Positions 31,114-51,503 of a DNA stretch of 64,000 nucleotides are shown in pieces (position 1 is the first letter of the stretch; each line of letters begins with the position of its first letter). The translations under genes and the position numbers were made by a program. The DNA lies in IMG/VR virus record IMGVR_UViG_3300042945_001784, positions 1 through 64,000 of that record; one strand, written 5' to 3'. Under the pieces are notes generated by a model, which saw nothing but the letters and a program-made list of their open reading frames with translations, was not told where the DNA came from and ran no database searches. Origin of the DNA: a virus.

Positions 31114-31137
31114 TTGCACACCACGACATTACTCACC

Positions 31138-31734
31138 ATGGCTGACAAGCTTTCCCTGATCCAAATTGCTGAATCCATCCAGCACATCAGCTTTTTGAAG
31201 GATATGCCTGACATCCCTGAGGATGAGCGGGCCATGCTGGAGCAGCACCTTCACGATCTGGCTTCTCGCCAGGAGTCCAAGTTTGATGCCATCATCGGCA
31301 TGATTAAAAAGTGTGATGCTTATATTGAAGCATTACAAACAGAGATGGATGAGATCAAACAAAACCTAGATGCATGGAAAAAGAACCGGGAAAAGATGGT
31401 TTCTATTGTTAAGTTTGCTTATCAACAGAATCTGATTGATAACAAGCCAACTGGTACTAAATATCAAGCTACGATTCGTAGAGTTAAGCCACGTCTTGTA
31501 GATAACTTTGAACACTGGGAGGAGGAAGATAAGACTGAGTTTGGTTTGCGTAAGACCACGACAATAACGCGCATTAAAGACAACACTGTTGTAGATGTAA
31601 AGCAAGAGGATTTACCTGATAAAGATCGGGTGCGTGATGCACTTGCTACAGATGACGGTTCAGCGCCAGCAGCAGCTCAACTTGTTCCTGGATTCTCCTT
31701 TGTTTATGAGCGTTGTAAAAGGTTAAGTACCTGA
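31138..31734 (+). CDS. Siphovirus Gp157/Gam-like coiled-coil protein
   Basis: ESKFDAIIGMIK...EALQTE...; PDKDRVRDAL C-terminus. Confidence 0.65.
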   Translation: MADKLSLIQIAESIQHISFLKDMPDIPEDERAMLEQHLHDLASRQESKFDAIIGMIKKCDAYIEALQTEMDEIKQNLDAWKKNREKMVSIVKFAYQQNLIDNKPTGTKYQATIRRVKPRLVDNFEHWEEEDKTEFGLRKTTTITRIKDNTVVDVKQEDLPDKDRVRDALATDDGSAPAAAQLVPGFSFVYERCKRLST

Positions 31735-31776: not shown

Positions 31777-32124
31777 ATGACTCAAGAACACCCGATTACA
31801 CCGCCCCCTGAGCTGGTGGAAAAGTGGCTGGAGAACACTTGCTCGCATGACTGCATCGGAGCTTACCCGGCGAACTACGAGCAGCTCATCTGCACCCAAG
31901 CCGCCCGCTGGGGCGCTGATCAGGAGCTGGAGGCGTGCTGTGAGTGGCTTAAAGCCAAAGAGTGGATTCACCACGAATTCAGCGACGAACTCCGCGCCGC
32001 CCGTCGCCCCAAGCCGCCGAGCTTGAAGGAGCAAGCGCTTGCAGTTTTAGACGACGCCTCAGATCGTCTTGATGCTGCTCACGAAAACATCATCCGCCGC
32101 GCACTGGAGCAACTCGATGGCTGA
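31777..32124 (+). CDS. Array gene, family A copy 1
   Basis: HPITPPPEL / QAARWGADQELEACC / RRPKPPSLKEQAL / IIRRALEQL blocks. Confidence 0.85.
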   Translation: MTQEHPITPPPELVEKWLENTCSHDCIGAYPANYEQLICTQAARWGADQELEACCEWLKAKEWIHHEFSDELRAARRPKPPSLKEQALAVLDDASDRLDAAHENIIRRALEQLDG

Positions 32125-32817: not shown

Positions 32818-33049
32818 CACCACCCCACTGAGCCCCGCCGCGCAGGCAGTGCTGGATGCCCTGCACACAGAAAACTCAACGGGTCCAGAGCGGTATTGGG
32901 CTCGTGCCAATGCCGTTGCCGCCCTGCGTGCTGCTGCGGATCAAGTAGTGCCAAAGTTTTGGCATGAGGACAACGACATTTACGGTGAAACAATGCAAGA
33001 CGTGCGTCAAAACCTCCTCGCCATCGCCGCCGAGCTTGAAGCCCAGTAG
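32810..33049 (+). CDS. Array gene, family B
   Basis: LSPAAQAVLDA...AAALRAAADQVVP...LLAIAAELEAQ; ends CCCAGTAG. Confidence 0.75.
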   Translation: MTDTTPLSPAAQAVLDALHTENSTGPERYWARANAVAALRAAADQVVPKFWHEDNDIYGETMQDVRQNLLAIAAELEAQ

Positions 33050-33061
33050 TCAACATCACTA

Positions 33062-33235
33062 ATGCTCAAAGACATCACACGCTGTCACGGCACAGGCTGC
33101 CCCGCAAAGCAACATTGCCTCAGACACACTGCACCAATCCCAGACAATGTTCTCCTGTCATGGGCGGCAAACCTCAACTACGAGCGAGCGCACATCTGCG
33201 CTTACTACATGCCCGCTACGCCCAAGACCCAGTAG
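33062..33235 (+). CDS. Array gene, 57-aa Cys-rich protein
   Basis: MLKDITRCHGTGCPAKQHCLRH...ICAYYMPATPKTQ; ends CCCAGTAG; below ORF-track cutoff. Confidence 0.7.
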   Translation: MLKDITRCHGTGCPAKQHCLRHTAPIPDNVLLSWAANLNYERAHICAYYMPATPKTQ

Positions 33236-33252
33236 TCCGATCAACTAACACC

Positions 33253-33951
33253 ATGACTGACCAATTTGTTAGCGCCAACAAAATGGTGCCGCCACGTGAG
33301 ATTATTGAACAATGGGCTAATGAAAAGGATTACGACGAACGCGATTGGCTTTACGAGATCCACATAGCAAACTGTGCTGCTGCGTGGGGTGCTAACCAGC
33401 AACTAATTGCAGATGCAAAGTGGCTGGATCACAATGCCTTGAATGAACCTCACCTAAGGATCACCCCAGTGGGAGAATCATTGAAGGAAGCGATGCGTCC
33501 AAAAAGTATAAAGGAGCGGGCATTACACGATCTTCATACTGCTTATAACGCGGATCAAATTGATGACCTTGGGAGAAATTCAATGACTAACCAACAACAC
33601 CCGATCACCCCACCGCCGGAGCTGGTAGAGCAGTGGCGCGATTTGCCCGAGTTCACCGATGGGCGGCGAAAGATGATCATGGTCACTCTTTCAAGAGAAA
33701 AACTTCTAGACATCGCCACTCAAGCCGCCCGCTGGGGCGCTGATCAGGAGCTGGAGGCGTGTTGCCATCTGCTGCGACAGCAGGGGTTTGACGTGGTTGA
33801 CGACCTTCGCGCGACCCGCCGCCCAAAACTGCCATCATTGAAGGAGCAGGCCCTGAGCGAGTTGAACCTGACTGCTGATCCCAACGGAGCCGAACTTTCA
33901 CGAACCCAGGTTGAACTTATCCGCCGCGCATTAGAGCAACTCAATGACTGA
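33253..33951 (+). CDS. Diverged family A copy (33253) read in frame into family A copy 2 (33583)
   Basis: AAAWGANQQL...RPKSIKERAL, then MTNQQHPITPPPEL...QAARWGADQELEACC...IRRALEQL. Confidence 0.75.
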   Translation: MTDQFVSANKMVPPREIIEQWANEKDYDERDWLYEIHIANCAAAWGANQQLIADAKWLDHNALNEPHLRITPVGESLKEAMRPKSIKERALHDLHTAYNADQIDDLGRNSMTNQQHPITPPPELVEQWRDLPEFTDGRRKMIMVTLSREKLLDIATQAARWGADQELEACCHLLRQQGFDVVDDLRATRRPKLPSLKEQALSELNLTADPNGAELSRTQVELIRRALEQLND

Positions 33952-34285
33952 GAAACACCCGATCACCCCACCGCCGGAGCTGCGTCGACTCTGGGCACAG
34001 CAAGCGCAACGCAAGAATCCACGCGATCCAGTGGCGTGGCAAGAGTACATCGCCGCCCAAGCCGCTCGCTGGGGCGCTGATCAGGAGCTGGAAGCGTGCT
34101 GTGAGTGGCTAGTAGTAGATGACTGGAAAAATGTAAGCGAGAACCTTCGCGCCTTCCGCCGCCCCAAGCCGCCGAGCTTGAAGCCCAGTAGTCCGACCCA
34201 CTTCTATTTAAATTCTGTTATAGTAAACAAGTTCCCGCTCTTTTTGATCGGGCAGATAGAGCCCAAGCCTCTGTCCAGTCCCTGA
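33944..34285 (+). CDS. Family A copy 3 with recombinant 3' end
   Basis: Conserved blocks up to PPSLK, then sequence identical to the family B end. Confidence 0.7.
   Translation: MTEKHPITPPPELRRLWAQQAQRKNPRDPVAWQEYIAAQAARWGADQELEACCEWLVVDDWKNVSENLRAFRRPKPPSLKPSSPTHFYLNSVIVNKFPLFLIGQIEPKPLSSP
34216..34224 (+). promoter_or_regulatory. Extended -10 promoter for the candidate ncRNA
   Basis: TGTTATAGT. Confidence 0.55.
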
Positions 34286-34454
34286 GGCTGGTTACGCTTG
34301 GGCCATCAATTAAGGGGACAACCCTGGACTGAGGTTGTCTTAAACGAAGTTCACCCATCAAAGTGTGCTCGCCCTTTATTGGTTACGCGTCAGGCAGACA
34401 GCCTGGAGGGCGGCCACGGTTCTGGAGGCGTCCGATAACGTCTCCCCGTTTTTT
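34231..34454 (+). ncRNA. Candidate structured ncRNA with two loop-loop pseudoknots (possibly manA-like)
   Basis: Six helices; GTCCAG/CTGGAC and TTATTGG/CCGATAA pairings; ends in a T-run. Confidence 0.7.
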
Positions 34455-34697
34455 CCGCCAGTGAACCGTCGTCAACTCTGGCACCTCTGGGCAAAAGCAC
34501 TCGGAGAAAAAACAGGACGGACAACCTCAGAAGCTGATCGGGTTGCCCTTATTCGTTCCGTTATTTTCTTAACTTATTTCTTAACCAATTGTTTCATTGT
34601 GGCTGGTGTCATTCGCCACTGGAACAATTGAGTCTTGTGTAAGACTTAACACTTTTTCCCTACTGTCCCTAGTAACCAAGAAGAACATCCGCTAATC

Positions 34698-35048
34698 TTG
34701 GTGCGCCCTTCCGTACCTTCTATGGCTGGTGAGTTCTACTACAGGGACTACGACACCTACTTCCCTACATTTAGCAATCATTCTAATAAGGTTGCTGAAA
34801 TGATGTCTCATCTGAATTATCAGATTACCGAATTCGATTTGGCACCAGTGCCTAGTCAAGAGCTGTTTCGTATGACTTTAGATCTGATGTATTACGTTGA
34901 TCAAAGTTACAAAGCAGACCACGGTATTTCTGATCAGTACGAAGTTCTTTCTTTCAGAACCAAAGATGAAATGCTTGATTCAATGCGATCTCTCCTCAAG
35001 GAAGAACTTGATCGGTACTTGGGATCTAGCGATGCAGCCAACCAATGA
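34698..35048 (+). CDS. Hypothetical protein
   Basis: ORF. Confidence 0.6.
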   Translation: MVRPSVPSMAGEFYYRDYDTYFPTFSNHSNKVAEMMSHLNYQITEFDLAPVPSQELFRMTLDLMYYVDQSYKADHGISDQYEVLSFRTKDEMLDSMRSLLKEELDRYLGSSDAANQ

Positions 35049-35265
35049 AACAACTAAGTCCTGGATCTGTGATGTTGATGAGGACGGTGTTCTCGTCTTC
35101 CCTGATGAACTCTGGAACCTCATGGGCTGGAAAGAAGGAGACACTATTGAATTCATTGATCAAAAAGATGGATCATTTCTTCTTAGGAAAGTAGACGAAC
35201 TGCCTGACAGTCTTGATCATGTTTCAACTGTTGAAAAAGCAGTAAAAGATGATCAAACTTCTTAA
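35032..35265 (+). CDS. AbrB/MazE/SpoVT-like DNA-binding protein
   Basis: VDEDGVLVFPDELWNLMGWKEGDTIEF...GSFLLRK. Confidence 0.8.
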   Translation: MQPTNETTKSWICDVDEDGVLVFPDELWNLMGWKEGDTIEFIDQKDGSFLLRKVDELPDSLDHVSTVEKAVKDDQTS

Positions 35266-35415
35266 AGATAAGTTAATTCGTCGGTTGAATGTTCATCTGG
35301 TGTCTCACATTGGGGCGCCAGAAACATCAACCGACTGGGTTAATGGCTATCAACAAGCCCTCAATGATGCTGAAAAGTTTCTTGATCAGCTTGAAGTTTA
35401 TGAACCTTACACAGA

Positions 35416-36539
35416 ATGAAACTTTCTGAACTGATCAACAAGCTGCAACGTCTTCATGACTTGTACCCACAGCTTGATCCTCAAATAACGCTAACGGAAG
35501 TAGCTTATTGCAGCTACGATAAGAATAAAACAGAGCCAGAGTTTTTCTGTCGTACTCTTGATAAGATTGCTTGTTTTGAATTGCAAACTTTTTTGCATAT
35601 TCCTTCTGAACAACTCTTCTCTGAACGCGGTCCTTATCTAAACATCTTCTATGAAGGAGATGTAATTGATAAGCCAGAAGATTACTGGAAGAACAACTAC
35701 TTTGCTCAACATGCAAACAAGCAAACTGGATCAACTCATTCAAGCAGCTGCTCAACACCAGACGCAGGAGTTGGAATGGATCAAAAATCTGTTTCAACAG
35801 AGGATGAAACTGATTACGGAACCAAATAAACTGTCTCATGAAAACACACAAACCGCTTGATCTCCAGCAACCTGATTGGGTGTGCCGTGATTGTGGTGGA
35901 CAATGGGGATTATGGTGGGATGGTGGTAAATACTCTGGACCACCACATCACTGTGCTACCTATCACAAAGGAAGGTGTGGTGTTTGCGGTAAAACAACAG
36001 GCGTTACTGAAGCTCGTGATTATGGCGGCTTAAAAGAAGGTTGGCATAAACCTTTGATAGAGTAGTTAAAAACAAGACTATCTTAAAGTCATGCAGAACA
36101 AAGGAGAACTTAAAGAGCAGTTTCTTGCTAACACTCGTAAAAAAATGGGCATTAGCGAAGAAAAACGTCAAGACTTTAAGCAACGTGCTCAGGAGGCTAA
36201 AGCAAGGCGTCAGAAAAAAGCAGCAGAAATGAAAACAAGACCTGCTTAATAATTGCAATAACTTAAAAAACTGCTAATTTAGTGCTGTAAGTTCCATTTC
36301 ATATGGCCCGCAGCACTAAACAGGTACGCTTTAAAGGTAAGCCCTCGGAAATCCTGGACCCAATTGAGTTCGAGGGTTACACCATTCAGTCTTTACGCCA
36401 CGGGGTAACCGGTCATGTGCTCTATCGCTATCCCAGCGAAGAGTATGACTGGGAACCCTGCTGGGGTATGGACCTTGAAACAGCTAAAAAATCGGTGTTG
36501 CGCTGCAAGGAAGCAGAACAACTACAATCAAAAGCATAA
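35416..36539 (+). other. Small hypothetical CDS (35416-35829, 35838-36065 Cys-rich, 36303-36539)
   Basis: ORF track; two CxxC motifs in 35838. Confidence 0.6.
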
Positions 36540-51343: not shown

Positions 51344-51428
51344 GGGAGCGTGGCGGAATTGGTATACGCTGCGGACTTAAAATCCGTTGGTCTCGACCTT
51401 GTGGGTTCAAGTCCCACCGCTCCTACCA
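51344..51428 (+). tRNA. tRNA-Leu(TAA)
   Basis: Cloverleaf; anticodon arm GCGGA-CTTAAAA-TCCGT; long variable arm; GGTTCAAGTCC; encoded CCA. Confidence 0.95.
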
Positions 51429-51429
51429 C

Positions 51430-51503
51430 CGGGATATAGCGCAGCTTGGTAGCGCATCTGCTTTGGGAGCAGAGGGCCGCAGGTTCGAATCCTGCTATCC
51501 CGA
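51430..51503 (+). tRNA. tRNA-Pro(TGG)
   Basis: Anticodon arm TCTGC-TTTGGGA-GCAGA; GGTTCGAATCC; no encoded CCA. Confidence 0.95.

Follow-up and report, generated by a model that had tools for sequence, protein, structure and literature searches.

A modular hairpin RNA, predicted to start at its own promoter, precedes a small gene in a lake cyanophage and recurs in reshuffled form among uncultured phages

The locus and its modules

The IMG/VR virus record IMGVR_UViG_3300042945_001784 is the genome of a lake cyanophage (80,807 bases, estimated to be 94% complete), and its first 64 kb, hereafter the window, carry a hairpin-rich stretch at 34231-34454 among genes of early and replication type. An earlier note, made from the letters alone, described this stretch as a large structured RNA that has a promoter of its own and an end like a terminator. 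That description is supported here, and every string it cited lies where it was placed. Judged by comparison between phages, the stretch is a chain of five modules, H0-A-B-D-T, and not one large fold, and it may well be a plus-strand non-coding RNA of about 224 nt driven by its own promoter. The comparison firmly establishes, as far as sequence can, a unit that is under structural selection, starts at a promoter, and is drawn from a widespread and uncatalogued set of phage modules. The modules recur among other uncultured phages in other combinations, often adjoining tRNA-like elements. The features of the unit are as follows.

34216-34224, plus strand: extended −10 element TGTTATAGT; its hexamer TATAGT (34219-34224) ends six bases before the first G of H0
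34231-34253, plus strand: H0, the 5′-terminal hairpin, GUUCCCG-CUCU-(apical stem-loop)-AU-CGGGC; predicted transcription start 34231
34254-34307, plus strand: module A, a long hairpin with outer stem GCCCAAGC/GCUUGGGC, internal loop CUCUGU/UUAC and inner stem CCAGUC/GGCUGG
about 34310-34378, plus strand: module B, with closing stem AAGGG(G)/CCCUU, hairpin GACAACC/GGUUGUC, UUAAAC, and a second hairpin with a C-rich loop
34380-34416, plus strand: module D, an irregular hairpin, UGGUU...GGCCA around CAGGC-AGACA-GCCUG
34417-34454, plus strand: module T, CGGUUCUGGAGGCG-UCCGAUAA-CGUCUCCCCG (34417-34448), followed by U6 (34449-34454)
34461-34631, plus strand: small gene of 56 aa with a GTG start, a basic N-terminus, a C-terminal half judged hydrophobic by eye rather than by computation, and the end AGVIRHWNN

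The 236 bases at 34225-34460 fold with a minimum free energy of −90.7 kcal/mol, against −76.1 ± 4.7 in dinucleotide shuffles (z = −3.1; an equal or better fold in 1 of 200 shuffles). The minus strand gives z = −2.7, and the G-U pairs in the stems of H0 and A are compatible with the plus strand only. The modular nature is apparent from BLAST of pieces of the RNA, in which separate parts match separate phages: 34313-34375 matches three contigs at 95-98% identity and 34231-34309 matches three others at 80-92%. Each matched locus is headed by the same short hairpin, H0, and the later elements vary in identity and order.

Relatives were collected through the protein of a neighbouring array of paralogous genes (80 loci) and through identity to a 25-mer of the GACAACC hairpin (3 loci); collected loci bear L numbers below. 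Pattern searches of IMG/VR gave at least 120 matches for H0, 115 contigs for a module A pattern with free positions (5 chance-like matches without the internal-loop motif were dropped before the counts below), and at least 114 matches for a module T pattern with three free stem pairs. For the window copies the nhmmer E-values are 9.7e-15 for A, 1.3e-22 for B and 4.4e-11 for T.

The promoter and the 5′-terminal hairpin

In the window, TG-T-TATAGT has the form of a sigma-70-type −10 element with a TG extension. Of 110 unique H0 contexts, 74 have a TAnnnT hexamer whose end is 6 nt (69 contexts) or 7 nt (5 contexts) before the first G of H0; at four shifted control positions the hexamer is found in 1-4 of the 110. 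When this G is taken as +1, the counts among the 110 contexts are 77 for T at −12, 89 for A at −11 and 89 for T at −7. This common register therefore makes H0 the predicted start of the transcript. The TGTTATAGT element that the earlier note had picked out at 34216-34224 lies exactly at the family-wide position, and its fit to the register identifies it as a putative extended −10.

A side observation concerns TAGTC...ACTA tags, which often stand just upstream of H0 (L020, L074, L098, L165, L169, L195, L204, L356, L357, L409 and others; 34189-34224 in the window). Because the second half of the tag provides the TAnnnT hexamer, as in gactactgtgctcta-G, some of these tags at least may be promoters.

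H0 is 23-26 nt long and reads GTTCCCGCTCT...ATCGGGC in its DNA form. A covariance model, R1, was built from 40 seed sequences. R1 matches H0 of the window at 32.3 bits (E 0.0011), a match that is partly by construction because the window copy is one of the seeds, and finds it as a single copy in the 80.8-kb genome. In 628,077 bases, comprising the window, the rest of the genome and the 80 independent loci, R1 gives 8 matches at E ≤ 1, all oriented with the genes. In the 40-sequence alignment 98.9% of cells are paired and three of the seven pairs are changed on both sides, a result that none of 500 shuffles equals. The basal stem changes from CCCG/CGGG to CCCC/GGGG in L507, L564, L566 and L567, and near-invariance extends over the unpaired CUC and U and the greater part of the basal stem. 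The association of H0 with the other modules is also found in a set gathered by module A alone, which is not biased towards H0: H0 lies directly upstream in 58 of 79 contexts, and one further copy with a long apical insertion falls outside the 58. The H0 copies of this set represent 23 distinct sequences, which differ mostly in the apical loop. With its R1 match at H0 and the shared modules A, B and T behind it, the window belongs to what is here defined as the H0-led family.

Among the collected loci, 130 instances of H0 are followed by 114 different downstream sequences, which contain A, B, T, a further recurrent element, tRNA-like elements, real tRNAs and sometimes an open reading frame (ORF) at 15-20 nt. 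Start codons at this distance were seen in L086, L111, L180, L201 and L202, and likewise in L020, L074, L100 and L192, which indicates that H0 can also serve as a very short mRNA leader. The genes right behind H0 belong to two families, with starts MAFTEDL... and MSAPLWHDLEAAF..., neither of which has a Shine-Dalgarno sequence. The further recurrent element is about 90 nt long, starts with GGUGGCCGGUGGCUGGUCCUCACGCGGUGCCAGCC, and stands after H0 or A in many cyanophage-like contigs (L083, L089, L093, L104, L106, L115, L163, L164, L168, L171, L176 and L179, all from IMG/VR); it has no Rfam match in the scanned loci.

Modules A, B, D and T

The covariation that the earlier note had proposed to look for was found in the stems of both H0 and module A. 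For A, 60 distinct sequences were aligned; in the outer stem 99.6% of cells are paired and 29 cells are changed on both sides, mainly from C-G to U-A at two positions that had been left free in the search pattern, and its score for pairing and covariation is reached by 0 of 500 shuffles. Thus the stem of GCCCAAGC (34261-34268) with GCTTGGGC (34296-34303), as read in the window alone, is conserved with compensatory changes in other phages. The inner stem has a mean of 6.45 bp against 2.7 in shuffles, with 5 of the 60 sequences scoring zero under the offset limit. Its variants include CCAGUC/GGCUGG (window), CCGGUC/GGCCGG, UAUGUC/GGCAUA, UACGUC/GGCGUA, GCGUC/GGCGU, the 11-bp AAGCGAUUAGC, and others.

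The central 62-63 nt of module B are 95-98% identical in L082-L084. Its plan, a G-rich/C-rich stem, a hairpin, UUAAAY and a hairpin with a C-rich loop, is kept in seven nhmmer matches and in divergent copies recognized by a hairpin-plus-UUAAAY rule. The pairing of B was judged from hairpins in individual sequences and carries no formal pair count, because MAFFT left the divergent copies out of register. The first hairpin occurs as GACAACC/GGUUGUC, GAUAACC/GGUUGUC, UGCAGC/GCUGCA (L013, L158) and UACGAC/GUUGUA (L117), and with a longer stem in L566, so that the hairpin of GACAACC (34317-34323) with GGTTGTC (34333-34339) that had been noticed in the window is likewise conserved with compensatory changes.

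The core of module D is identical in five metagenome contigs, each time immediately 5′ of T, and nhmmer finds no other copy of D among the collected loci. The module closes on itself through UGGUY/GGCCA.

Module T was identified by a terminator scan as a stem at 34424-34445 with 8 pairs, 5 of them G-C, and the tail CCGTTTTTTC, and its form is that of an intrinsic terminator. Addition of the lower CGG/CCG pairs extends the stem to 34448, where it abuts U6. The last hairpin and T-run (34449-34454) of the earlier note are thus present, and the hairpin is confirmed by its conservation in other phages: among the 114 matches listed to the T pattern, 22 have genuine arms GCG/CGT and an invariant stem, and the other 92 appear to be chance matches. 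An H0-like motif lies within 300 nt upstream in 17 of the 114 T matches listed, and the distinct ones of these that were listed are all genuine T. Behind T there is usually CCG and then a further module, in many cases a tRNA-like element; among the matches listed, only those T copies that have the small gene next to them are trailed by a U-run, namely in the window (U6), L507 (U4CCUU) and L566 (U4AU).

The long-range contacts that the earlier note had drawn between these modules fared less well. Its pairing of GTCCAG (34273) in the loop of A with CTGGAC (34324) in the loop of B is not conserved. GTCCAG is used locally in the inner stem CCAGUC/GGCUGG of A, and the B loop CUGGACUGA is unchanged both where A is missing (L082, L083) and where it stands beside an A without GTCCAG (L084). 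The pairing of TTATTGG (34376) with CCGATAA (34432) in the loop of T comprises 7 bp in the window, which is matched by 12 of 200 shuffles, and only 4 bp in L566, L564 and L507. In a wider search for an upstream partner of the T loop, the longest complements in the 21 distinct contexts range from 4 to 7 bp without a consistent partner, and in two of the 21 the length is reached by 10 or fewer of 200 shuffles. A kissing contact of the T loop with AUCGGG of H0 can be drawn in several contigs and is lost in L507 and L566. Finally, the stem CGCCCT (34370-34375)/AGGGCG (34407-34412) fails in L563, where D follows H0 without B, so that the partner strand is absent; D is nevertheless unchanged there.

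Catalogue status

Rfam 15 (4227 families) was searched with cmscan, and no family matches within 34231-34454 at the gathering score, and a scan of 33000-35500 at E ≤ 10 gives none that overlaps the RNA; the whole window yields only two tRNAs (51344-51503). Among 20 homologous phage loci scanned, tRNAs alone reach the gathering score, and matches to mascRNA and isrB stay below it. The manA motif, which the earlier note had brought up as a known cyanophage RNA to be checked together with wcaG and others, gives no match even at E ≤ 10, and hence the RNA is neither manA nor wcaG at the reach of the Rfam models. BLAST against 50,697 phage records gives none at E 1e-5, and a looser search gives partial matches in Synechococcus phage S-CBS2 only. 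ARAGORN and the Rfam tRNA model find no cloverleaf or T-arm in the RNA itself; its relatives have tRNA-like modules after T. A full-text literature search for the H0 string returned only unrelated primers. A set of 8,495 unnamed structured-RNA candidates from IMG/VR has been described (PMC10690425); the module strings are absent from the six of its supplementary files covered by the search, and some of the modules may be among these candidates. Phage structured RNAs are poorly charted, and the case described here adds small modules, absent from Rfam, that are common to many uncultured phages and reshuffled among them.

The small gene and the related phages

The small gene behind T belongs to phrog_1679 (E 1.8e-25), a family of unknown function, and was found by tblastn in 13 collected loci. 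It stands directly after an H0-led RNA of varied module content in six phages, namely the window, L507, L510, L453/L102 (one contig), L131 and L566, and the gene of L507 is 96% identical to that of the window. The relative with the full order of the window, promoter-H0-A-B-D-T-small gene, is L566, in which the stem sequences of H0, A and B differ; it has a TGn-TAAACT −10, an AAACAAG spacer as in the window, a U-run, and a small gene that starts with ATG and opens with MQRRKLWHLWAKALGEK. In L507 the stop codon of a Gp157-like gene is followed by a TAAACT −10, H0, T, U4CCUU and the small gene, with no array between. Compared with L507, the window has gained two segments, a 2.4-kb paralogue array 5′ of the promoter and, between H0 and T, the modules A-B-D. 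Other combinations are H0-D-T followed by a tRNA-like element (L563, L565) and H0-B-B-D-T (L564, L567). The only cultured phage found with these modules is S-CBS2 (NC_015463.1, 56650-56760), whose terL and sigma-factor genes are separated by an unannotated 190-nt gap that contains H0-T-A, and such a carrier makes the question directly testable in a laboratory phage-host pair.

The tRNA-like element that is often found immediately 3′ of T is a recurrent module in its own right, carried by L101, L102, L114, L139, L150, L164, L168, L453, L456, L467, L510 and L563 (IMG/VR, metagenome). It has an acceptor-like stem CACCCAG/CUGGGUG, a canonical T-arm GCGGGUUCGAAUCCCGC, and an irregular D and anticodon region; ARAGORN calls it once, as a tRNA whose anticodon has two bases, and its score of 26.7 bits in the Rfam tRNA model is below threshold.

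Neighbouring genes and the array junction

The genes around the RNA include the following.

31114-31734: Gp157/Gam-like gene
31777-32124, 33583-33951 and 33944-about 34190: three paralogous small genes (the cassette array)
near the RNA, in the early/replication region: SSB (single-stranded DNA-binding protein) gene
near the RNA: gene for a DUF5895 protein
farther along from the RNA: PD-(D/E)XK nuclease and primase-helicase genes

Searches of the rest of the genome with Pfam found no integrase, integron-type gene, antiterminator (N-/Q-like) or RNA-handling enzyme. The earlier note had stressed that the RNA directly follows the cassette array and had proposed to follow this synteny in other phages. 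The RNA does stand before an array gene in L013, but beyond the window H0 is matched by R1 in only 7 of the 80 loci collected through the array protein, and L507 has the RNA without the array between; the link of the RNA to the array is loose. The third paralogue is cut short after PPSLK; its frame stays open across the promoter, H0 and half of A, and the stop lies at 34285. The 26 nt of GCCGCCGAGCTTGAAGCCCAGTAGTC are repeated exactly, at 33026-33051 (...AAELEAQ-stop) and 34168-34193 (...PPSLKPSS...), which suggests that short-homology recombination fused the array to the junction before the RNA.

H0 beyond phages

The H0 pattern also gives at least 120 matches in a collection of bacterial and archaeal genomes with one genome per species, most of them chance-like matches in coding sequences of G+C-rich bacteria. 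Among the 120 matches listed, 25 have a promoter-like sequence before H0 and the next hairpin after it; the 21 of these with a record title are assigned to Alpha-, Beta-, Gamma- or Deltaproteobacteria. The RNA in question is about 120 nt long. A sigma-70-like promoter stands before H0, the second hairpin comes after UUGGAGAC or UAAGUCC, and a long hairpin whose loop is of the GAUAACAAGC type is followed by a terminator; several copies have clear TTGACA-like and TATAAT-like hexamers. In an alignment of 24 sequences, 13 of the 21 consensus pairs have compensatory changes, and Rfam has no match to this H0-led RNA. It is found on the genome contigs L210, L213, L219, L220, L222, L232, L234, L239, L248, L249, L255, L258, L260, L269, L271, L281, L285, L286, L327 and L329-L333, and the same type is also present on the IMG/VR contigs L095, L172 and L185. 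In one case an integrase gene is 333 nt away, and in another the RNA and a PemK-like gene are convergent; because of these neighbours and the copies on IMG/VR contigs, some copies at least are evidently on mobile elements. H0 thus changes hardly a letter between cyanophages and proteobacterial genomes, and the conservation of its unpaired bases points to a specific molecular partner.

Interpretation

The reading favoured here, held with middling confidence, is that of a structured leader with T as its usual end, by which read-through into the small gene is limited. Most transcripts would stop at T-U6 and give a discrete, stable RNA of about 224 nt, and the fraction that reads through would be the mRNA of the small gene, with the RNA acting as its leader or attenuator. 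H0 at the 5′ end would shield the RNA against 5′-end-dependent decay, a protection that is conceivable because H0 leaves only three unpaired 5′ bases, and its invariant unpaired bases suggest that it would also be bound by a specific factor. A, B and D would be optional inserts between H0 and T. In favour of this reading, T with U6 has, to judge from the prediction, the form of an intrinsic terminator, H0 is at the expected +1 of a putative sigma-70-type promoter, and the promoter-H0-...-T unit precedes the same 56-aa gene in related phages. As T stands just before this gene in the window, L507 and L566, the RNA is probably both the leader of the gene and a short terminated RNA. The independent transcript proposed in the earlier note therefore stands as regards its own promoter and terminator-like end, but its independence is qualified, since T precedes the small gene and the RNA is probably a leader too.

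Several points weigh against this reading. The start, the end and the read-through are predictions. No −35 element was found, and a consensus scan calls no plus-strand two-hexamer promoter here; extended −10 promoters can function without a −35. A strong terminator 7 nt before the start codon would leave little expression unless it is relieved, and no device for this was found. H0, A and T are also present without phrog_1679, as in S-CBS2 before a sigma-factor gene, before other ORFs, and in proteobacterial RNAs with terminators of their own, and hence their function would not be tied to the small gene. Moreover, near-invariance of T and of the H0 base points to a trans-acting partner, for which a plain attenuator would have no need. 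This last feature is what would be expected if the RNA were free-standing and acted in trans, or were a precursor cut into small RNAs, with modules that bind or titrate proteins of the host or the phage, such as RNases, tRNA-handling enzymes or defence nucleases, and with the small gene as a mere neighbour. Such a role is possible, though on the doubtful side. It would agree with the promoter and terminator of the unit, with the shuffling of modules among phages and their frequent position next to tRNA-like elements and real tRNAs, with the single H0 in the genome, and with the terminated, roughly 120-nt RNAs of Proteobacteria that begin with H0. On the other hand, the repeated position before phrog_1679 in six phages with differing modules suggests co-transcription, and H0 is also found 15-20 nt before the start codons of other genes. 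A bolder and rather unlikely proposal makes H0 a portable, sequence-specific 5′ tag that a conserved host or phage factor reads. In cyanophages, and on mobile elements of Alpha-, Beta-, Gamma- and Deltaproteobacteria, the tag would single out a privileged transcript, of which this genome has one. The elements that come after the tag (A, B, D, T, tRNA-like and others) would then form a combinatorial toolkit of RNA decoys or handles, passed between phages in the manner of gene cassettes. If true, phage RNA biology would gain a class so far undescribed.

The remaining explanations are all improbable to different degrees. H0, perhaps with later modules, could be a processive antiterminator that acts in cis on RNA polymerase, like HK022 put or lambda nut, and so carries it across the hairpin-rich array. 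Its promoter-proximal position at the head of hairpin-dense untranslated arrays would suit such a role, and its CGCUCU resembles the start of the lambdoid boxA. Yet the likeness covers six bases and is lost beyond them in most copies, and the window unit ends in a good terminator, which antitermination would defeat. put consists of two larger stem-loops that act on RNA polymerase and raise read-through in cis, whereas H0 is a single small hairpin. As Pfam also finds no N-/Q-like gene, this explanation is unlikely. H0 also bears a weak likeness to type I-E CRISPR repeats. Very unlikely, too, is that the hairpins function in DNA, as recombination sites or cassette boundaries of the PeSL or attC kind, with the RNA incidental. 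The modules do mark differences in content between related phages (the 2.7-kb array plus A-B-D of the window against H0-T alone in L507), and the exact 26-nt repeat at the array end speaks for short-homology recombination, but the G-U pairs and the constant orientation to promoter and genes fit RNA, the −10 register places H0 at +1, and the genome has no integrase or integron-type gene by Pfam. A chance fold or a decayed gene remnant was considered in view of the overlapping ORFs at 33944-34285, 34298-34438 and 34365-34631, since the upstream ORF stays open into H0 and A, its stop being at 34285. A coding reading of these ORFs was rejected: the paralogue alignment ends at 34186 and a protein-family match begins only at 34461. 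With compensatory changes in the stems, and with insertions and deletions that ignore the reading frame, a remnant is highly improbable. Least probable of all, to the point of being negligible, is that the RNA is manA, wcaG or another described cyanophage motif or riboswitch, for which its size and cyanophage setting speak and nothing more, and which is refuted at the sensitivity of the Rfam covariance models.

Comparison with known systems

The RNA shares with manA and wcaG that it is a structured cyanophage RNA of a few hundred nucleotides with unknown function. It differs from them in that it has no Rfam match and consists of separable hairpin modules that start at the +1 of a predicted promoter. 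In lambda, the promoter PR′ is followed by about 200 nt of untranslated RNA (6S RNA) and by the terminator tR′ before the genes; the majority of transcripts stop at this terminator, and expression of the genes needs read-through. The arrangement here is similar, with a promoter, an untranslated RNA of about 200 nt and an intrinsic terminator directly before a gene. However, no Q-like antiterminator was found here, the modules are common to unrelated phages and to tRNA-like elements, and a single small gene follows. Hairpins that stabilize the 5′ end are present in the ompA leader, the leader of T4 gene 32 and aprE-type leaders of Gram-positive bacteria, and H0 resembles them in lying three bases or fewer from the 5′ end of the transcript; its sequence, including the unpaired CUC and U, is near-invariant, and simple end protection needs no such invariance.

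The PeSL cassettes of T4-type phages are reportedly promoters followed by a conserved stem-loop, which are said to be sites of small-gene exchange. The likeness lies in a promoter with a conserved stem-loop immediately behind it, at a place where related phages have swapped small genes. In contrast to the repeated units of PeSL, there is one H0 in this 80.8-kb genome, the hosts of H0 are distant from each other, and further RNA modules follow it. Stable RNAs are also known from the tRNA regions of phages, namely species 1 and 2 of T4, and GOLLD and ROOL near tRNAs. Like the RNA described here, they are structured phage RNAs of unknown function that often lie beside tRNAs or tRNA-like elements; GOLLD and ROOL differ from it, as it has no match to their Rfam sequences or models. 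Finally, the H0-led RNAs share with the candidates of PMC10690425, as far as that source was covered, that they are structured phage RNAs recognized by comparative analysis and that their function is unknown.

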